DNA of 64,000 bases from a virus: IMG/VR virus record IMGVR_UViG_3300032291_003663, positions 1-64,000 of that record; one strand, written 5' to 3'. Below, one piece after another: positions 11,974 to 49,127 of this stretch (position 1 is its first letter; the number at the start of each line of letters is the position of its first letter). A program made the position numbers and the translations under genes. The notes under the pieces were generated by a model. It did not search any database. It was not told the DNA's origin and saw only the letters and a program-made list of their open reading frames with translations.

Positions 11974-13268
11974 TGAAAAAAGTACGCCTAAAAAAAATAT
12001 TCATCCATCTACCAGCATACAGAGAACCCGAATTAGTTCCTACAATTAAATCGGCCTTAGAGAATGCTACACATCCTGATAGATTAGTATTTGGTATTTG
12101 TAGACAATTTAACCCTGAAGATGGATTTGATAATGTAGATGAATTTAGAAATGATTCTCGTTTTAGAATAATGGATATTCATTACACACAAGCTAAAGGA
12201 TTACCATACGCTCGCTACCAGATTAATACAATGTTACAAGATGAAGAATATATCTGTCAACTTGACTCACATCATAGATTTGCTGAGGGTTGGGATGTAA
12301 CATTGATTGAAATGCATGATCAATTAAAGGATAAAGGCGTTAAAAAACCGATATTAGCAGCATACTTACCATATTATAATCCATTTGATGATCCGGCTGG
12401 AAGAACGATGGAACCTTGGCAACAAACATTTGCATGTTTTTATCCTCATGGTACTATATTCATTAGACCTTCATTATTACATGGATGGCAAGATATGACT
12501 GAACCACCTCCATCAAGATTTCTATCAGGACATTTTTGCTTCGCTGATGGACATTGGGCTAAAACAGTATTGCATGATCCCGATATCTATTTTAGTGGTG
12601 AAGAATTAAATTTAACTGTTCGTTCATATACTCACGGGTATGATTTATTTCACCCACATAAATTAGTTATATGGCATGCCACAATGCGTGAAGAAAGAGA
12701 TGGTATATTAGTATGGGATGATCAACATAAACGAGGTGAAGATTGGTGGACTCAACAAAATATTGCTCGCTCTAAAATTAGACAACTATTAGGTACTGAA
12801 GATAATGGATTTGACTTAACAGGATTTGATTTGGGAACTGAACGTACATTACGTGATTACGAAAAATATGCTGGTATACACTTTGGAAAAAGATCAGTAC
12901 AACGCTTTACGTATGATAATAATTATCCTCCTAATCCGGTAATTGAAGATGAAAAAGAATGGGAAGATTCATTTATGTTTTCTTTCTACCATTGTATACA
13001 ACTTAATAAGAGTCATTTTAAACATGATGACTATGATTTCTGGGTTTGTGCTTTTGATGATGAAGATGGAAAAGAAATATGGAGAGAAGATTACCAAGAA
13101 CACCAGATTAAAAATATACTAGCATCTGATGGAGAATGGTACAATGAAGAAAAATTCTTCTTAATAGATAAAATACCGGCACGTTGGGTTATATGGGCAC
13201 ATAGTAAATCTCAAGGATGGGCTGAAAGAATTGAAGAACAAACCAACTATAATTATAAAATACAGTAA
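11973..13268 (+). CDS. GT60/Gnt1-like GlcNAc-transferase, copy 2
   Basis: IFIHLPAYREPEL, GLPYAR, QLDSHHRF, FSGEE, YTHGYD, GTERTLRDY; paralog of 10690. Confidence 0.85.
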   Translation: MKKVRLKKIFIHLPAYREPELVPTIKSALENATHPDRLVFGICRQFNPEDGFDNVDEFRNDSRFRIMDIHYTQAKGLPYARYQINTMLQDEEYICQLDSHHRFAEGWDVTLIEMHDQLKDKGVKKPILAAYLPYYNPFDDPAGRTMEPWQQTFACFYPHGTIFIRPSLLHGWQDMTEPPPSRFLSGHFCFADGHWAKTVLHDPDIYFSGEELNLTVRSYTHGYDLFHPHKLVIWHATMREERDGILVWDDQHKRGEDWWTQQNIARSKIRQLLGTEDNGFDLTGFDLGTERTLRDYEKYAGIHFGKRSVQRFTYDNNYPPNPVIEDEKEWEDSFMFSFYHCIQLNKSHFKHDDYDFWVCAFDDEDGKEIWREDYQEHQIKNILASDGEWYNEEKFFLIDKIPARWVIWAHSKSQGWAERIEEQTNYNYKIQ

Positions 13269-30227: not shown

Positions 30228-31522
30228 ACAAACCACTTTGCGTAGTAAGCTGTCCAATAGACACATATAGCGGATACGGAGCTAGATCTCGTGATTTTGT
30301 AAAATCTCTTATCAAAGCTAAAGGAGATGAATGGGATATTAAAATTTTATCTCAACGATGGGGATCTACTCCATTCGGTGCCTTAAATGAAGATATTAAA
30401 GAAGATTTAGATTTAAAAAATAGAATAATAGGAGCACTTACAATGCAACTTAACTTCCAACCCTATGTGTGGATTCAAATTACAGTACCTAACGAGTTCC
30501 AACCATTAGGAAAACATAATATTGGAGTAACAGCTGGAATAGAAACAACTATTTGTGACCACACATGGCTTGAAGGATGTAACAGAATGGATATTAATTT
30601 AGTATCATCTGAACATTCTAAAAAGATATTTGAAACTAGTAATTTTGAACACAAAAATACTGCTGGTCAAACTGTTGAAAAATTTGAACTAAAAAAACCT
30701 ATTGAGGTACTTTTTGAAGGTGCAGATCTGAACAAGTATTTCAAATCAGATACACTTACTGATTTTAACATTTATGATGATTTAAATACAATTAGCGAAT
30801 CATTTTGTTATTTGTTCGTAGGACATTGGTTACAAGGTGAATACGGCGAAGATAGAAAAAATATTGGATACATGATTAAAGCATTCCTAGAAGTATTTAA
30901 AAACAAGAAAAATAAACCAGCATTGATTTTAAAAATATCTCAAGGTGCTCCTTCAATTATGGATAGAGATGTTATTTTAAAGAAAATAGAAGATATTAGA
31001 AATACCATAGCTGGAAAAGATTTACCAAACATATATCTTGTTCATGGAGATCTAAGTGATGAAGAAATAAATTGTATTTATAATCACCCAAAAGTAAAAG
31101 CAATGATTTCATTTACTAAAGGTGAAGGATTTGGACGACCATTACTTGAATTTAGTGTTGTTGGAAAACCAATTATCGCTAGTGGATGGAGTGGACATTT
31201 AGATTTCTTAAATGCTGAATTTTGCGGATTAGTAGGGGGATCATTGAATAAGGTACATCCAAGTGCTGTTGTTCAAAATACACTACTTGCTGAATCAATG
31301 TGGTTTAGACCAGATGATAATCAATCTGGACACGCTCTCGATGATGTATTTAATAACTATAAAGATTATCAAGAAAAGGCAAAACGATTAGCATATAGAA
31401 ATAAACAAAATTTTTCATTAGATAAAATGACTGAAAAACTAGGTGAATTACTTAAACAATACGTGCCAGAAACACCAAAACATGTTACTTTAAATTTACC
31501 TAAGCTTAAAAAAGTAGATTAA
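30224..31522 (+). CDS. GT4-family glycosyltransferase
   Basis: SGYG, DRKNI, GEGFGRPLLEF...GKPIIASGWSGH. Confidence 0.9.
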   Translation: MNKPLCVVSCPIDTYSGYGARSRDFVKSLIKAKGDEWDIKILSQRWGSTPFGALNEDIKEDLDLKNRIIGALTMQLNFQPYVWIQITVPNEFQPLGKHNIGVTAGIETTICDHTWLEGCNRMDINLVSSEHSKKIFETSNFEHKNTAGQTVEKFELKKPIEVLFEGADLNKYFKSDTLTDFNIYDDLNTISESFCYLFVGHWLQGEYGEDRKNIGYMIKAFLEVFKNKKNKPALILKISQGAPSIMDRDVILKKIEDIRNTIAGKDLPNIYLVHGDLSDEEINCIYNHPKVKAMISFTKGEGFGRPLLEFSVVGKPIIASGWSGHLDFLNAEFCGLVGGSLNKVHPSAVVQNTLLAESMWFRPDDNQSGHALDDVFNNYKDYQEKAKRLAYRNKQNFSLDKMTEKLGELLKQYVPETPKHVTLNLPKLKKVD

Positions 31523-32573: not shown

Positions 32574-33191
32574 ATGCCTTCAATTAGTTATGCTATCACT
32601 GCTCATAATGAAGTAGATGAATTAATTAGACTACTAAACCAATTAGTCAATATTGCCAATAAAGAGGATGAAATAATCATTCAGCTAGACTTAACAGCAA
32701 CTATGGGGGTAAAATATATTATAGATGAATATCCCACTGTTAAAAATATTGAGTTTGGATTAAATAAAGATTTTGCTTCATTTAAGAATAATCTAAAAAA
32801 TAATTGTACTAAAGATTACATATTTTTTATAGATGCAGATGAATATCCTTCTACTCATTTAATTAAGTTACTCAAACAAGTATTAACATCTCACGCTGAT
32901 ATAGATTGTTTTGCTTTACCTAGAATCAATACGGTTGATGGTCTTACTCAAGAACATATTCAAAAGTGGGGATGGGTAGTAGACAATAAAAATAGAATTA
33001 ATTGGCCCGATTATCAAACTAGAATTTGCAAGAATATTCCTGATATAAAATGGGTAGGTAAAGTTCATGAACGACTAGAAGGATTTAAAATTATCTCTCA
33101 TTTCCCTTCAGAATATGAAGAATGGGCTTTAATTCATCCTAAGACAATCAAACGGCAAGAAATACAAAATAATCTTTACTCGCAAATATAA
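32574..33191 (+). CDS. GT2-family glycosyltransferase
   Basis: ISYAITAHNE, IFFIDADE, WPDYQTR, VHERL. Confidence 0.88.
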   Translation: MPSISYAITAHNEVDELIRLLNQLVNIANKEDEIIIQLDLTATMGVKYIIDEYPTVKNIEFGLNKDFASFKNNLKNNCTKDYIFFIDADEYPSTHLIKLLKQVLTSHADIDCFALPRINTVDGLTQEHIQKWGWVVDNKNRINWPDYQTRICKNIPDIKWVGKVHERLEGFKIISHFPSEYEEWALIHPKTIKRQEIQNNLYSQI

Positions 33192-44053: not shown

Positions 44054-44375
44054 AAAGACAAACGAGGATGCTCAACGTGAATTATTTATTAATACTGTTC
44101 CTTTATTAGAACATATTGTGAATAGAGGAGATATGTTATTTGCTGACTATGGGATTAATTTACTTAAACATGATGAATCTTTCTTCCAAATTATAGATAG
44201 CTTAATATATATGCATTTTGGAAAAGATGCCGGGGAGATAATAATGTTTTACGTTTATGAAAGAATTAATCCTGATGGAACAATAAATCCACTATATGAT
44301 ACTGAGGATAATGTTGTTCCTTTAGATAAAATTGAAGACTTGTGGGAATTAGTAAAGCAATTAATTAAAAAATAA
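43971..44375 (+). CDS. Hypothetical protein
   Basis: ORF track. Confidence 0.65.
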   Translation: MNPKDHIEKLQEQINQIIGTQSVLKRRKKTNEDAQRELFINTVPLLEHIVNRGDMLFADYGINLLKHDESFFQIIDSLIYMHFGKDAGEIIMFYVYERINPDGTINPLYDTEDNVVPLDKIEDLWELVKQLIKK

Positions 44376-45025
44376 TGCCTGCTGCTAAACCATTAAGTAA
44401 AGAAGATATATTACGAGCAATGCGATTTACAAAATCAAATCGTGCTGCCGCTCGTTATCTAGGAGTATCCTATCAACATTATAAACCTTGGGCTAAGCAA
44501 TATAAAGCAGATGATGGCAATATTGACTTACCATCTCTATTTGAATTACATAAAAACCAATCAGGTAAAGGTATCCCTAAATTCTTACCCAATAAACGTA
44601 AAGACCCAAATGTTAAACTTATAATTGAGACAGGTACAGGATGGGAATCATTTACACCTGAGAAAATTAAGTCACGATTAATAGCAGAAGCATATTTAAA
44701 AGACGAATGTTACCATTGTGGATTTAATGAGCGTAGAGTAACTGATTATAAAACACCACTGTTATTACATTTTAAAGATGAAAATAAATGTAATTATTTA
44801 CTCGATAATTTAGAACTATACTGTTATAATTGTTATTTCTTATACGTTGCTAATCCGTTAACATTAGATCAAATACGTCATATTGAAGACAATACTGAGG
44901 TTAAAGCGGTAGCACATGAGTGGGATTTAACACCTGAGCAAATAGAGAATATGAAATCACTAGGCCTATGGGATGAAGATAAAAATGATGAACCTGGATC
45001 TGAATTTATAGCTTATCAAAAATAA
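44375..45025 (+). CDS. HTH + HNH-like Zn-binding protein
   Basis: SNRAAARYLGVS (HTH); CYHC...LHFKDEN..NY..DNL...CYNC. Confidence 0.65.
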   Translation: MPAAKPLSKEDILRAMRFTKSNRAAARYLGVSYQHYKPWAKQYKADDGNIDLPSLFELHKNQSGKGIPKFLPNKRKDPNVKLIIETGTGWESFTPEKIKSRLIAEAYLKDECYHCGFNERRVTDYKTPLLLHFKDENKCNYLLDNLELYCYNCYFLYVANPLTLDQIRHIEDNTEVKAVAHEWDLTPEQIENMKSLGLWDEDKNDEPGSEFIAYQK

Positions 45026-45749: not shown

Positions 45750-46134
45750 TAAATCAAATATAATTGTATTTGAACCTCTATCTATACGAACCAATAAACC
45801 TAAAACGGTTTTTGAAGAGTATAAAGTAAAAATGGCTATAAAAGTAGTAGAGGCTATCTTACATTGTATTAAATTTGGAAAATCTAAAACAGTATTTGCA
45901 GAAATAATAGTTCCGGCATCTAAAGAAATAATTTGTCTAAATATTGAAGAAAGTAACTTTTTAGATACTTTAAATATAAATTTAGATACTTTAGTAGTAG
46001 AAGAAGAATATGAGCTATGTGCTGAATTAGTTAAAGCAAAAGAAAAAATAATAAATGGTCTTCCAAAGAAAAGTACTCGTCAAAAGAAAAAAGAAGCAGT
46101 TGACGATCTTATCGGAACCATAAAAAATCTTTAG
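45739..46134 (+). CDS. Hypothetical protein with UVR-like motif
   Basis: EEEYELCAELVK. Confidence 0.55.
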   Translation: MRNSKSNIIVFEPLSIRTNKPKTVFEEYKVKMAIKVVEAILHCIKFGKSKTVFAEIIVPASKEIICLNIEESNFLDTLNINLDTLVVEEEYELCAELVKAKEKIINGLPKKSTRQKKKEAVDDLIGTIKNL

Positions 46135-46161
46135 TATATTTGCATTAGTTCTTTAACATAT

Positions 46162-46526
46162 GGGGGTAACTGGATTTGATTGCAATGAGAATTGTAGTAT
46201 CACACGTAGAGGTAAGTGCTAGAAACTCTTTAAAACTGTACAAAACATTAACTGACGAAATGTCAACTATGACCTTTGATTCTCTTATGAGTTTCATTGG
46301 TGCTGATTACGCTCTAGCAGCCTAATTCCTCCCGTACACATCATGGGACAATTAAATAGAATGTGAAACCAATGTGGCATAGGAGCCGAATCGAACTCCT
46401 ATCACCGTCAGCTAACGCGGTGTGAGAATGTTAGATAAGTGTTCATTCTGAATAATGGAATAAACGTGTGACATGCTGGTATTATAGTTACTTTGTAAGA
46501 CGTGGGTTCGAATCCCACTACCTCCA
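46162..46526 (+). ncRNA. ssrA: tmRNA
   Basis: GGGGGTA/TACCTCC-A acceptor with G3.U; GGATTTGA D-loop; T-arm GTGGG-TTCGAAT-CCCAC; tag frame 46254-46325 DEMSTMTFDSLMSFIGADYALAA*; promoter box TATATTTG at 46135. Confidence 0.93.
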
Positions 46527-46609
46527 CTAAAATAATCATTATAAACAAATTAAATTTTGAAACCCTATTTTAGGGTAATACATTTAATTAAATAAAAAAC
46601 AAAAATAAC

Positions 46610-46762
46610 ATGAAAAAAGCAATTTTCGCTCTAGCATTAGTATCAGTATTATCAAGTTGTGGTGGTGGATCAAATGAAGTACCAACAATAGATTCAACAA
46701 AAGTAGATTCTGTAAAGGTAGATTCAACAGTAGTAACTGATTCTTCTGCAAATGTGAAGTAA
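46610..46762 (+). CDS. 50-aa lipoprotein
   Basis: MKKAIFALALVSVLSSCGGGSNEVPTIDSTKVDSVKVDSTVVTDSSANVK; lipobox LSSC; own promoter at 46556-46586; not in the ORF track. Confidence 0.8.
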   Translation: MKKAIFALALVSVLSSCGGGSNEVPTIDSTKVDSVKVDSTVVTDSSANVK

Positions 46763-46781
46763 TTTAGAATATTAAACTAAT

Positions 46782-46813
46782 AAAAGCTCTGAGATTAAAA
46801 TCAGGGCTTTTTT
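46782..46813 (+). terminator. Intrinsic terminator
   Basis: AAAAGCTCTGA-loop-TCAGGGCTTTTTT. Confidence 0.8.
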
Positions 46814-46837
46814 ACATTTACTTATAACATCAAAAAT

Positions 46838-46863
46838 AAAAAAAGCCGGCTTTTCAGCCGGCT
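46838..46863 (-). terminator. Intrinsic terminator of the minus-strand gene
   Basis: A-tract then AGCCGGC-TTTTCA-GCCGGCT. Confidence 0.8.
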
Positions 46864-46883
46864 ATACAAATAAAAATAATAGA

Positions 46884-47048
46884 CTAAGCTTTCTTTTTAG
46901 AAGCTATAGACCATCCAGCACCAACAAGTGTCATAACACCACCAAGGATTTCTTGGAACATTACGTCATCAACAAGTCCTTTTGCAACAATAATACCACC
47001 AATGAAGGTTAATGAGTGCCTGATAAGGCCTAAAGTTTGTTCTTTCAT
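46884..47048 (-). CDS. 54-aa 2-TM holin-like protein
   Basis: MKEQTLGLIRHSLTFIGGIIVAKGLVDDVMFQEILGGVMTLVGAGWSIASKKKA; minus-strand TATTTATA at 47082-47089; own terminator; not in the ORF track. Confidence 0.75.
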   Translation of the reverse strand: MKEQTLGLIRHSLTFIGGIIVAKGLVDDVMFQEILGGVMTLVGAGWSIASKKKA

Positions 47049-47146
47049 AATAATTGGGTTTAGTTAATAAATGAGAACACATATAAATATGAAAAAGTGG
47101 GAACCAAATAGTATATTCATATATTTATATTGTTCAAAAGATATAT

Positions 47147-47232
47147 GCCCTTGTGGTGAAATTGGTAGACACGCAAGACTTAAAATCTTGTTCGCTGTAA
47201 AGCGAGTGCGGGTTCAATTCCCGCTGGGGGTA
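47147..47232 (+). tRNA. tRNA-Leu(UAA)
   Basis: D-arm GTGAAATTGGTAGACAC; anticodon arm CAAGA-CTTAAAA-TCTTG; long variable arm; T-arm GCGGG-TTCAATT-CCCGC; acceptor rich in G.U pairs; no encoded CCA. Confidence 0.85.
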
Positions 47233-47242
47233 CTTAGTTAAT

Positions 47243-47398
47243 TGTCAAGTGGTGAAAGCTAGATCAGCAGGCATACACACCCACTCGTCTCGTGGGCGCT
47301 GAGTTTGAAATAGATGTTTTGGGTATGGGTTGACCACAAGCCGGCTATTTTGTCCAACATTGAATCACAGCGTGGAGGTTCGAATCCTTCCTTGACAG
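47243..47398 (+). ncRNA. tRNA-like RNA A (76-nt variable arm, non-canonical GTC loop)
   Basis: TGTCAAG/CTTGACA-G acceptor; GGAGG-TTCGAAT-CCTTC T-arm; CCCAC-TCGTCTC-GTGGG; CGCTG...CAGCG closes 47297-47372. Confidence 0.75.
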
Positions 47399-47417
47399 CT
47401 TAAATATAGATACAAAA

Positions 47418-47533
47418 GGTTGATTGGGAAGCCTTACACCTTCATTAAAAAGTTGGAATGTAAGCGAGGAGGTGTAGGAACCGAAGTAAAGCCAATCGTA
47501 AAAGTAGATGTCCACGCACCCATCTTCTACTTT
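47418..47533 (+). ncRNA. Unclassified structured RNA 1
   Basis: TGATTGG/CCAATCG, TACACCTTC/GGAGGTGTA and AAAGTAGA/TCTACTTT helices. Confidence 0.55.
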
Positions 47534-47548
47534 CCTAAAATTATTGAC

Positions 47549-47664
47549 ACGCACGGCAACCGAAGTCATACTAGTCAAAGATTAGGCAATGCGAACAACC
47601 ATGAAGAATACCTCACTGTGCGTAGGTAAGTTTTAAGTTCTTCTGACTGTGGGGAAAGACCCAC
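47549..47664 (+). ncRNA. Unclassified structured RNA 2 (possible pseudoknot)
   Basis: ACGCACGG/CTGTGCGT, CTAGTC/GATTAG, TACCT/AGGTA plus GAAGAA/TTCTTC, GTGGG/CCCAC. Confidence 0.5.
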
Positions 47665-47669
47665 TCTTT

Positions 47670-47777
47670 AGTCAGGTGGCGGAATTGGTAGACGCATTGA
47701 GGAATCTAAACTTGGTAACATTTGTTAGATTTAATAGTAATCCTCCTTCCTTACAGGTTCGAATCCTGTCCTGACTA
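47670..47777 (+). ncRNA. tRNA-like RNA B (extended arm in place of the anticodon arm)
   Basis: AGTCAGG/CCTGACT-A; Leu-like D-arm GGCGGAATTGGTAGACGC; ACAGG-TTCGAAT-CCTGT; GAGGA..ATCTAA..TTAGAT..TCCTC with no 7-nt loop. Confidence 0.75.
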
Positions 47778-47780
47778 CAA

Positions 47781-47985
47781 TGGGTAAGAGATACTCACTA
47801 GTCTTTAATTCAAGACTTAAACAATGGATTCGCAGAAAGTCTACGGCGCGAGTGGGACTTCATGGGAATAAAGGAGCGGACACAACTCCTCCCAGTAGTG
47901 TTGGATGTTTTTATGAGGGATGCCTCGCAGGTTTTTAAGAAATAGAAAACCGAAACAACTACTCATCAGTAATCTCAAGGTGGGG
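47781..47985 (+). ncRNA. Unclassified multibranch structured RNA 3
   Basis: GAGAT/ATCTC closing helix; CTCACT/AGTGGG, AGTCTT/AAGACT, AGGAG/CTCCT, AGTAGT/ACTACT, TGAGG/CCTCG, GGTTTT/AAAACC. Confidence 0.55.
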
Positions 47986-47990
47986 AAAAT

Positions 47991-48107
47991 AGTCAGGTGG
48001 GCGTAATGAGGGATGGTCCCGAGTCCTAGAGACCAATCGACACCTGTAAAGGTGCAAAATGATGGAGTCGTAAGGTTGCTTATCCGGTTCGAGTCCGGCC
48101 CTGACTA
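47991..48107 (+). ncRNA. tRNA-like RNA C (GNRA-capped arm in place of the anticodon)
   Basis: AGTCAGG/CCTGACT-A (same as B); CCGG-TTCGAGT-CCGG; D-stem GGGC/GTCC with inserted GGGA-TGG-TCCC; CACCT-GTAA-AGGTG. Confidence 0.72.
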
Positions 48108-48143
48108 CTTCTTTAAAAATGATATTTATAACAAATTAGATTT

Positions 48144-49127
48144 ATGAAAACAAAATTAGTTACTGCTTATTACCCATTACATCAAGGCCCTCCATTTTGG
48201 GGTAAACAAAATAGAGAAAGATGGTACAAGCATTCAATTGCTTCAATATGTGAAACTAAAGTCCCAATAATTTGTTATACAGACGAACTTGGTTATGATG
48301 AGCTATTTGCTGTTAAAACTGATAGACAACTAGACAATCTTACAATTAAAATGTACGATTTAACAACTAGTCAGTTTCATGATAGAGTTTATAAAGCAAG
48401 AATGGAAGGCAATCCTGAAATGTACAATAATGAGCTTCATCCATATTATAGAATGCCTGTTTCTGTTTATTGGATGAAATGGGGATTTTTAAAAATGGAA
48501 TATGAAGAAGATACTTACATATATTGGATAGATGGAGGATTATCAACTCAAGGTGTATTTCCAGGTAGAGCATCATCATACGGAACAGATCCAGGATATT
48601 TTAAGAACTATAATGGAGAAGAAGGAGATTTTTATACAACACATGAGTTTAAATTATTCGTGTTTGATAAAATATTTAACCTCAATTTCATCCCCAATCT
48701 AAATAAATTTTCAGAAGGTAAAATAGTTAATATCTGTAGACAAGATTGTACGGATAATGATTTTCATTTATTCGAAGAAAAACTAAACTTACCTAAAGGA
48801 AATATAATCTACACTAATAAATTCCCAGTAGGTGCCTTATTTGGAGGACATTCTTCCCAAATAATGAAGTATATAGATGAATTTAATGAGGTAGCAAATA
48901 AAGTTCTTGAAGTAGGAGATTATGTTTGTACAGAACAAGAAATAATGGGATATATTCATTCAATACATCCCGATTGGTTTACAGATTGGACTTTTCATGA
49001 CTTTTATCATGAAGATTGGAAATTAGCAAATGGTCCTAGTGTACTTATCCCATATAGAGAAGCATATCCTAATAATATTTCATTTAGTAAGTTATTTATA
49101 GATACTTTGGGAGCTCCTCAAGTTTAA
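48144..49127 (+). CDS. HtrL/WlaTC-like glycosyltransferase
   Basis: KLVTAYY, YWIDGGL, GALFGG, TEQEIM; same pattern as domain 3 of 16919; TATTTATA at 48123. Confidence 0.65.
   Translation: MKTKLVTAYYPLHQGPPFWGKQNRERWYKHSIASICETKVPIICYTDELGYDELFAVKTDRQLDNLTIKMYDLTTSQFHDRVYKARMEGNPEMYNNELHPYYRMPVSVYWMKWGFLKMEYEEDTYIYWIDGGLSTQGVFPGRASSYGTDPGYFKNYNGEEGDFYTTHEFKLFVFDKIFNLNFIPNLNKFSEGKIVNICRQDCTDNDFHLFEEKLNLPKGNIIYTNKFPVGALFGGHSSQIMKYIDEFNEVANKVLEVGDYVCTEQEIMGYIHSIHPDWFTDWTFHDFYHEDWKLANGPSVLIPYREAYPNNISFSKLFIDTLGAPQV

Follow-up and report, generated by a model that had tools for sequence, protein, structure and literature searches.

Why should a phage carry three RNAs that have the acceptor stem and T arm of a tRNA but no loop fit for decoding, and why should these be set head to tail with folded RNAs of other kinds? 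The question is raised by the IMG/VR phage record IMGVR_UViG_3300032291_003663 (91 kb, estimated to be about 53% complete), the first 64 kb of which were analysed here and are called the window. An RNA island at 46.1–48.1 kb contains a transfer-messenger RNA (tmRNA) unit, a small gene on the minus strand and an array that begins with tRNA-Leu and continues with the tRNA-shaped RNAs A, B and C. In our opinion, the array is probably a small-RNA transcript punctuated by tRNA shapes, which would serve both as processing handles and as carriers, and we hold this answer with modest confidence. In order, the array consists of tRNA-Leu(UAA), A, B and C, followed by an open reading frame (ORF); A and B are 271 nt apart, and B and C 213 nt. 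Its parts are as follows.

47147–47232/3, plus strand: canonical tRNA-Leu(UAA), called by ARAGORN and by Rfam (RF00005, 53.7 bits)
47243–47398, plus strand: RNA A, a class II cloverleaf with U1:A72, G73, a D-loop hairpin, the loop UCGUCUC and a variable arm of 76 nt
47399–47484, plus strand: poorly conserved stretch 3' of A, with one weak 23-nt match among the related loci and no conserved ORF
47485–47540, plus strand: int1a, a conserved hairpin with the loop UCCACGCACC
47542–47669, plus strand: int1b, about 125 nt, UGACACGCACGG...UACCUCACUGUGCGUAGGUAA..., with a terminal hairpin GUGGG-GAAAGA-CCCAC just before B
47670–47777, plus strand: RNA B, a Leu-type frame (AGUCAGG, U8 G9, GCGGAAUUGGUAGACGC ... 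ACAGGUUCGAAUCCUGU, CCUGACU, A73) holding a cargo helix of 56 nt
47778–47990, plus strand: int2, about 205–220 nt, CAAUGRGUAAGAGRURCUCA ... AAUCUCA-loop hairpin ... GGGGAAA, exactly between B and C
47991–48107, plus strand: RNA C, with the acceptor of B, the T arm UCCGG-UUCGAGU-CCGGC and the core GCGUAAUGAGG-[H1]-CCGAGUCC-[H2]-GGUUGC, where H1 and H2 are hairpins

The positions and structural features that a sequence-only reading had assigned to tRNA-Leu, A, B and C were recovered from the sequence itself and with ARAGORN and Rfam. In all three unusual RNAs the acceptor stem has 7 bp and G53-C61 closes a TTCRA loop in the T arm, and none of them has a 7-nt anticodon loop with U33 and a purine at position 37. 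In A, the acceptor TGTCAAG/CTTGACA with G73 and the T arm GGAGG-TTCGAAT-CCTTC accompany a 5-bp stem with the loop TCGTCTC, which has C33 and U37 and so lacks both U33 and the purine. B combines the acceptor AGTCAGG/CCTGACT and A73 with a Leu-type D-arm and the T arm ACAGG-TTCGAAT-CCTGT, and the position of its anticodon arm is taken by a long interrupted helix. C has the acceptor, A73 and C74 in common with B, the T arm and the core being its own; in the window its H2 is enlarged by about 44 nt with a GNRA cap (CACCT-GTAA-AGGTG, 48041–48054). The description of the three as anticodon-less has to be corrected: none has a usable anticodon loop, but A does not lack an anticodon, as the centre of its 7-nt loop is a GUC that never varies in the class.

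Standard tools see little of this. With default settings ARAGORN reports only tRNA-Leu(UAA), the only canonical tRNA that it finds in the 91-kb record, and none of A, B and C. An Rfam search of positions 46000–48300 at E values up to 10 returned only the tmRNA and tRNA, and a known RNA family was rejected on this ground; GOLLD, ROOL, Y RNA, 6S RNA, RNase P RNA, introns and ribozymes were absent from the matches. A and C had no Rfam match even at E = 10. B was matched by the Rfam tRNA model with 39 bits and an insertion of 34 nt in a sensitive search, above the gathering threshold of 29 bits, and was not listed by a default-filter scan of the whole window. Our own scan of the 91-kb record for an acceptor stem combined with a T arm, with shuffled genomes as the control (about 0.25 hits per shuffled genome), picked up A and B and missed C solely through a strict T-stem rule.

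The RNA A represents a single-copy class lying outside the family of B: a 16-mer of its long arm occurs once each in 99 IMG/VR contigs. In an alignment of 57 sequences, with A of the window as the first row, compensatory changes were found in 27 of the 41 predicted pairs. The covarying pairs belong to the acceptor, the D stem, the 5-bp stem and the T stem and are distributed along the 76-nt arm; covariation of the inserted arm had been named beforehand as a test. The acceptor occurs as 14 different complementary pairs, which indicates selection on the class at the RNA level. The variable arm, of about 75 nt, covaries across the class, and its apex UAUGGGUUGACCAC is invariant. In the loop, the central GUC is invariant and C38 is present in most copies; position 33 is mostly C, with a few U and two A, and position 37 is a pyrimidine, mostly U, in all but two copies, which have A. 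U1:A72 is invariant, and G10 (57/57), G73 (56/57) and G2:C71 (55/57) are nearly so. The conserved determinants of aspartate tRNA are G73, G34, U35, C36 and C38 (PMC9976931). By comparison with this list, the A class keeps an aspartate identity set without keeping a decoding loop.

A covariance model built from the phage copies of A (R1) was run on 151 Chitinophagales genomes and gave full-length matches in 61 of them (about 40%), on large chromosomal contigs. The bacterial copies score 55–104 bits, all but one at least 69, and occur in tandem sets of up to four. The class is thus also a chromosomal family of Chitinophagales, and A is a phage copy of a host RNA. It took the covariance model to find this family, since a search for an exact 14-mer of A in 301 Chitinophagales genomes gave seven hits, each a coincidental match within coding sequence. 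The four bacterial copies whose alignments were inspected do not have the D-loop hairpin of the phage A. The normal tRNA-Asp loop CUGUCAC is also present in three of five carrier genomes, which indicates that the A-type RNA is an extra one and not the tRNA-Asp of the cell. A divergent regulator of the AsnC/Lrp type adjoins the bacterial A-type RNA in six of ten loci; at one locus aspS adjoins a tandem triplet of the RNA tail to tail, and at another the neighbour is lysS. Among the loci that carry the bacterial RNAs are L474 (G111:C3:245644-248801), L471, L473, L475, L477, L478 and L480. The gene of GatB was found in all 61 carrier genomes vs 59 of the 90 non-carriers, in counts uncorrected for phylogeny or genome completeness, and AsnB-type genes are present in 138 of the 151 genomes, including most carriers.

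B belongs to a much larger family. A 24-mer of B covering the T arm and the 3' acceptor strand is found exactly in more than 120 IMG/VR contigs, in up to six copies per 5 kb, and AGTCAGG lies 54 to 182 nt upstream of each copy. In the loci fetched for comparison, which are designated by L-numbers such as L083 and L293 (461 loci, 3.9 Mb in all), there are 339 distinct RNAs with the acceptor of B; their median length is 102 nt, and they are distributed over 241 loci with up to eight per locus. The ends of this Leu frame are near-constant, comprising AGUCAGG, U8 G9, a Leu-type D-arm, U, (A/G)CAGGUUCGAAUCCUGU and CCUGACU. The base at position −1 is U in 270 of the 339 frames (80%, the background of T being 32%), and A73 and C74 are present in 308 (91%) and 333 (98%), respectively. 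B agrees with the family in every feature, namely the acceptor, U8 G9, the D-arm, the T arm, A73, C74, U at −1 and a variable middle. ARAGORN assigns scattered and implausible anticodons to the Leu-frame copies.

The middles of the frames, referred to here as cargos, are very diverse. When the ends were slightly relaxed, 371 distinct frame RNAs were obtained. Their cargos form 52 clusters, apart from 216 that are without a relative in the set; small clusters contain one to four compensatory pairs each. The cargos fold somewhat better than random segments do (mean z of −0.59 vs −0.32, p = 1.5e-4). The 56-nt cargo of B is letter-identical in L459 and L461, in unrelated surroundings, and the three frames around it differ at a few positions. 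This cargo is evidently constrained, and its very identity leaves no variation for a covariation test.

A search for the 24-mer of B in 185,579 species genomes (32 million contigs) found it in 18 contigs, all from metagenome-assembled genomes and all with the same non-canonical RNAs. About half of these contigs are from lake Bacteroidota. In none of them, nor anywhere in the 185,579 genomes, is the 24-mer part of a canonical tRNA, and the idea that the frame mimics a particular host tRNA was rejected for this reason. Some Leu frames contain a second insert in the D-loop, between GCGGAAU and GGUAGACGC (L293:3425-3625, L050, L023, L064, L097), so cargo can be placed at two sites of the frame; in the phage A, the D-loop hairpin occupies the equivalent place. 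One member of 70 nt (L040, minus strand, about 13030–13101) has a canonical-looking Lys(UUU) arm, CCGAU-CUUUUAA-AUCGG, which means that the AGUCAGG frame can also host a normal decoding arm.

C is the window's member of a third class, recognised by the motif GCGTAATGAG 3' of the shared acceptor, which occurs once per contig in at least 119 contigs. The usual length in this class is 75–81 nt. The core is almost invariant and consists of GCGUAAUGAGG, a covarying hairpin with GG in the loop, CC(G/A)A(G/A)UCC, a hairpin of variable length and GGUUGC. In an alignment of 40 sequences, covariation was found in H1 and in the T stem. The discriminator may be A, G, U or C, and both the anticodon arm and the Leu D-arm are absent. 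A covariance model of the class (R2), run on 101 Chitinophagales genomes, gave only weak matches (34–38 bits, 71–86 nt) in six of them, which were taken, uninspected, for ordinary tRNAs, and as far as tested the C class is phage-specific. The compensatory changes in the A class, the invariance of the C core in at least 119 contigs and the identity of the cargo of B in three contexts bear out the earlier opinion that these RNAs are not decayed tRNAs.

The intervals between A, B and C, which the same reading had regarded as folded RNAs, are no mere spacers: they have homologues in many other phage contigs, and int1a, int1b and int2 are each conserved there. The hairpin int1a is 85–96% identical in L083, L044, L012 and L099, and a similar hairpin also stands 5' of the int1b-bearing frame in L293. 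About 24 copies of int1b were found, and most of them are followed by the hairpin with the GAAAGA loop and then at once by a tRNA-type start. Its core of 100 nt occurs in three settings: free between tRNA-type units, as the cargo of a Leu frame (L293, L180) and before a T-run (L046). That one core can be free, framed or placed before a T-run suggests that the frame is an interchangeable device which forms and protects the ends of an RNA. The order int1a, framed int1b, int2 in L293 mirrors the order in the window.

The junctions of int2, whose 5' motif was found in at least 120 contigs and in each of them once, are mostly exact. At 110 of 124 copies the base just before int2 is the discriminator that follows a T arm and a 7-nt acceptor strand, as compared with 0.6% of random positions; past the last hairpin of int2, a distance of 4–7 nt leads to a tRNA-type 5' start in 80 of 97 copies. 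The neighbours of int2 are either frames or ordinary tRNAs. In the window the junctions have no spacer, B ending at 47777, int2 occupying 47778–47990 and C starting at 47991. A coding function of int2 (a 52-aa ORF at 47780) was rejected, since the indels of its homologues are not multiples of three.

Taken together with U at −1 in 80% and C74 in 98% of the frames, the zero-spacer junctions point to processing of the acceptor ends by the tRNA enzymes of the host. Of the 1533 canonical tRNAs in these arrays, 1342 (88%) likewise have C74, followed by an A/U-rich trailer. From the discriminator onward the window reads A-CAA at B and A-CUU at C, so a CCA end on either would be non-templated. From these marks we infer the cleavages, the CCA addition and the stability of the array RNAs, in the following way. 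One transcript would string tRNA-Leu, A, int1a, int1b, B, int2 and C head to tail and continue into an mRNA. Host RNase P would cut at the 5' side of each tRNA-shaped unit, and the 3' side would be handled by RNase Z or by trimming together with the CCA-adding enzyme. Excision would then set the ends not only of the tRNA shapes but also of the RNAs lying between them, and would give the downstream message its 5' end. For the family of B and C, the acceptor stem, D-arm elbow and T arm, which make up the conserved upper part of a leucine tRNA, would be the handle and the protective carrier, and the middle, exchanged between frames as a cassette, would carry the specific function; the constant ends of the frame would also permit such exchange by recombination. 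The Leu frame in effect looks like a natural tRNA scaffold. A would stand apart as a phage copy of a host RNA with the identity marks of aspartate and without a decoding loop.

As regards the downstream message, an ORF starts no more than 40 nt downstream of 38 of 145 frames in the related loci, with a peak at 15–20 nt. These ORFs are mutually unrelated, and a role of the frames as a cis-regulator of one downstream gene was ruled out for this reason.

Of the options put forward in the sequence-only reading, processing punctuation received the best support, from the junctions of int2, U at −1 and C74. Several points weigh against it nevertheless. Ordinary tRNAs punctuate equally well, and punctuation leaves both the odd shapes and the near-invariant sequence of the frame unexplained; a sequence-specific reader of the frame, LeuRS or a phage protein, is possible. 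The set of synthetase identity marks kept by A is needless for a mere handle. The cargos fold just slightly better than random segments and most of them have no relatives, so many could be weakly constrained filler. The identity marks lead to another explanation, which we think rather unlikely but worth keeping in view, namely that the tRNA shapes are charged by host synthetases, the B type by LeuRS and A by AspRS, and are kept off the ribosome; the charged RNAs would then be non-ribosomal aminoacyl carriers, or else sinks or regulators of the synthetase, EF-Tu or the amidotransferase. The identity of leucine tRNA in E. coli consists essentially of A73 and A14, and the anticodon arm is dispensable for leucylation (PMC9976931); in the B family 91% of the members have A73, the D-loop is of the Leu type and contains A14, and the T stem is preceded by U. 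The set G73, GUC, C38, G10 and G2:C71 of the A class matches the aspartate determinants of the same source, and the bacterial copies adjoin the AsnC-type regulator and, at one locus, aspS. Charging does not fit C, with its variable discriminator and missing Leu D-arm, nor the int1b core, which does without any frame in most phages. Besides, A has U1:A72 where bacterial tRNA-Asp has G1:C72 (PMC9976931), the 91-kb fragment yielded no synthetase, transferase or CCA-adding enzyme, and the identity marks may be inherited from a parent tRNA. A narrower proposal, decidedly less probable, is that A and its chromosomal relatives are a non-decoding cofactor, charged by AspRS through G73, GUC, C38 and G10 and amidated from aspartate to asparagine by GatCAB, the Leu-frame RNAs being in parallel leucylated carriers of hundreds of modules. 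U1:A72 is the mark by which bacterial GatCAB accepts Asp-tRNA(Asn). Being invariant in the class, this pair would let the amidotransferase convert the aspartate bound to A into asparagine; C33, U37 and the giant arm would keep A off the ribosome, and the phage copy would sustain the reaction during infection. The AsnC-type regulator in six of ten loci, aspS beside the tandem triplet and the uncorrected distribution of GatB are hints in this direction. AsnB-type synthetases are, however, present in most carriers, and a missing asparagine synthetase, considered as support for the cofactor, was dropped.

It is also conceivable, although unlikely, that the RNAs are decoys or sponges for anti-phage nucleases of the host or for other proteins that bind the tRNA body, the altered middle being uncleavable or irrelevant as a target. 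A keeps Y33-G34-U35, the context read by E5-type anticodon nucleases. The many copies of one invariant tRNA body per genome would suit such a function, as would the extreme diversity of the middles, which an arms race might give, and both tRNA-cutting defences and countermeasures of phages that employ tRNAs are established (PMC13056530). A decoy has no need for a specific conserved cargo, yet the cargo of B, the core of C and the arm of A are conserved. Nor would one expect an anti-defence decoy to be encoded, often in tandem, by the chromosomes of the host, as the A class is. No gene of defence or anti-defence is linked to the array, and the ORFs downstream are unrelated to one another. Least of all do we expect these to be tRNA genes from which the inserts are spliced, or dead tRNA copies retained as recombination sites, an explanation that is very improbable. 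In its intron mode ARAGORN calls B a tRNA-Leu(tag) with a 22-nt intron, and at a relaxed threshold it calls A and C too; constant ends of 25 nt could aid the exchange of cassettes, and L293, in which int1b is framed, has int1a, int1b and int2 in the order of the window. The anticodon stems of these intron models contain mismatches, and the models were accompanied by false calls in coding DNA. Across 170 copies no exon-like anticodon stem is conserved beside the D arm or the T arm, no intron family of Rfam was matched at E values up to 10, and RtcB was not found in the 91-kb record, which covers about 53% of the genome, so that the production of ordinary tRNAs by splicing, considered beforehand as what would overturn the idea of non-decoding RNAs, was not borne out. 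The covariation in the acceptor, T, D and inserted arms indicates selection on the RNA itself.

The punctuated transcript, which we continue to favour, has counterparts elsewhere. tRNA punctuation or tRNA-like signals operate in mitochondrial transcripts, the t-elements of plant mitochondria, the mascRNA of MALAT1 and the tRNA-miRNA units of gammaherpesviruses. When an RNA directly adjoins a tRNA shape, the ends of that RNA can be made by RNase P and RNase Z, and the zero-spacer junctions of int2 have the same design. Those systems are eukaryotic or organellar, whereas the array lies in a bacteriophage RNA island and many of its tRNA shapes also carry an internal cargo. In the engineered tRNA scaffolds of Ponchon and Dardel, foreign RNA replaces the anticodon region and is processed and stabilised by E. 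coli (PMC3753655). The framed int1b in L293 and L180 looks like a natural equivalent; the scaffold is synthetic, while the natural Leu-frame family also has the D-loop insertion site, and its benefit for stability is hypothetical. Compared with class II bacterial tRNAs (tRNA-Leu for B and C; the aspartate set on a class II body for A), the array RNAs share the acceptor stem, U8, the G18 G19 elbow, the T loop and the discriminator of RF00005, but A, B and C lack the 7-nt loop with U33 and purine 37, and their middles are 25–130 nt long.

Among phages, the closest likeness is to the stable RNAs of T5 and T4. T5 (NC_005859) encodes RNA1 (30501–30644) and RNA2 (32959–33083), annotated as 'tRNA-like stable RNA with unknown functions', on the same strand in a tRNA cluster among tRNAs and the stable RNAs RNAI, RNAIII, RNAIV and RNA2H. 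A comparison of the folds showed that T5 RNA1 resembles B: its middle of about 85 nt is enclosed by a terminal helix, a T arm and a D-arm of the Leu type (GCCGGAAUUGGUAGACGG). The T arm of T5 RNA2 is GCAGGUUCGAAUCCUGU; inside this RNA there is also a T-loop-like hairpin as in some freshwater cargos. The hairpin, GCUCG-UUCGAUU-CGAGU (L140 7960-8084), resembles those of L079 and L085, which could be a shared module or convergence. The T5 RNAs differ from B in their acceptor sequences and in being present in one copy each, not as a multi-copy family with a fixed frame. In T4, rnaC and rnaD, the species 1 and 2 RNAs (NC_000866, 70908–71171), are small stable RNAs at the end of the tRNA cluster beside tRNA-Arg, and rnaC contains a T-arm-like hairpin, CCGGG-UUCGAAU-CCCGG. 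They differ from B in having no evident Leu-type frame and no sequence relation to it, and only two are present in T4. A blastn search against 50,697 phage records matched only the D-arm and T-arm of tRNA-Leu, and no homology to the stable RNAs of T5 and T4 was found beyond the tRNA parts. The array RNAs, like those of T5 and T4, lie in a phage small-RNA cluster on one strand and flush with tRNAs, and judging from sequence and position they are the same kind of thing.

The array had been proposed as a candidate for an undescribed system. For the families this seems correct, since no description of the Leu-frame, Asp-type, C, int1b and int2 families was found in the full-text literature searched, and a 2023 catalogue of viral structured RNAs mentions tRNA-like candidates in general terms only; for the type of RNA it is not, as the tRNA-like stable RNAs of T5 and T4 have long been annotated. 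At least five conserved families are not recognised by Rfam, namely the Leu-frame cargos, the C core, the Asp-type RNA with its giant arm, int1b and int2. These families are distributed over hundreds of lake phage contigs, and one of them is present in about 40% of the sampled Chitinophagales genomes; standard annotation of tRNAs and other RNAs is blind to such genes. If the proposed mechanism is true, phages use the tRNA shape as a general-purpose vehicle, and one precursor together with the tRNA enzymes of the host would yield many precisely cut, stable small RNAs, the modules of which could be swapped between frames. Nature would have its own version of the engineered tRNA scaffold, and bacterial viruses a counterpart of mitochondrial tRNA punctuation. 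The function of the array RNAs would bear on the takeover of host RNA metabolism by large phages and might help to explain the stable RNAs of T4 and T5.

The window has a G+C content of about 30%, and nearly all of its genes are on the plus strand; they include genes for a family B DNA polymerase, a GroEL-type chaperonin, and glycosyl- and methyltransferases. The source is best explained as a large freshwater phage of Chitinophagales (Bacteroidota), and the array from tRNA-Leu onward as one transcription unit. The remaining features of the island and its border are as follows.

46162–46529: tmRNA, full length, 81.4 bits with Rfam, with its own terminator at 46782–46811
46884–47048, minus strand: ORF of 54 aa (PHROG 37382) with its own terminator, separating the tmRNA unit from the tRNA-Leu array
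47120–47127, plus strand: candidate promoter −7 box TATATTTA, 20 nt 5' of tRNA-Leu, read from the sequence
48144–49127, plus strand: ORF of 327 aa, the first 3' of the array, starting 36 nt past C, with no Pfam or PHROG match

Both the tmRNA unit and the small minus-strand gene have their terminators 5' of the box TATATTTA at 47120, which resembles the −7 box of Bacteroidota and is a plausible promoter. No convincing terminator was found within the array from tRNA-Leu to C. The 54-aa ORF is an exception in its orientation, all ORFs of at least 150 aa in the window being on the plus strand. The 327-aa protein had no relatives in viral contigs, and TROVE/Ro60, RtcB and a CCA-adding enzyme were not found in the 91-kb fragment, which is itself incomplete.

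Between 55438 and 64000 there is no ORF of at least 150 aa with translation table 11, table 4 or TAG read as Q, and there are few ORFs of 100–150 aa; GC skew is above that of the rest of the window, and this region may contain many tiny early genes or be non-coding. Recoding of stop codons by a suppressor tRNA, suggested by CUA in a loop-like context in B, was rejected, as the ORFs at 55–64 kb stay closed with TAG read as Q or with table 4. Just upstream of the RNA island, a 216-aa ORF (44375–45025) has a weak match to an HNH-endonuclease PHROG (E = 1e-6), which recalls the homing endonucleases of the T4 and T5 tRNA clusters.

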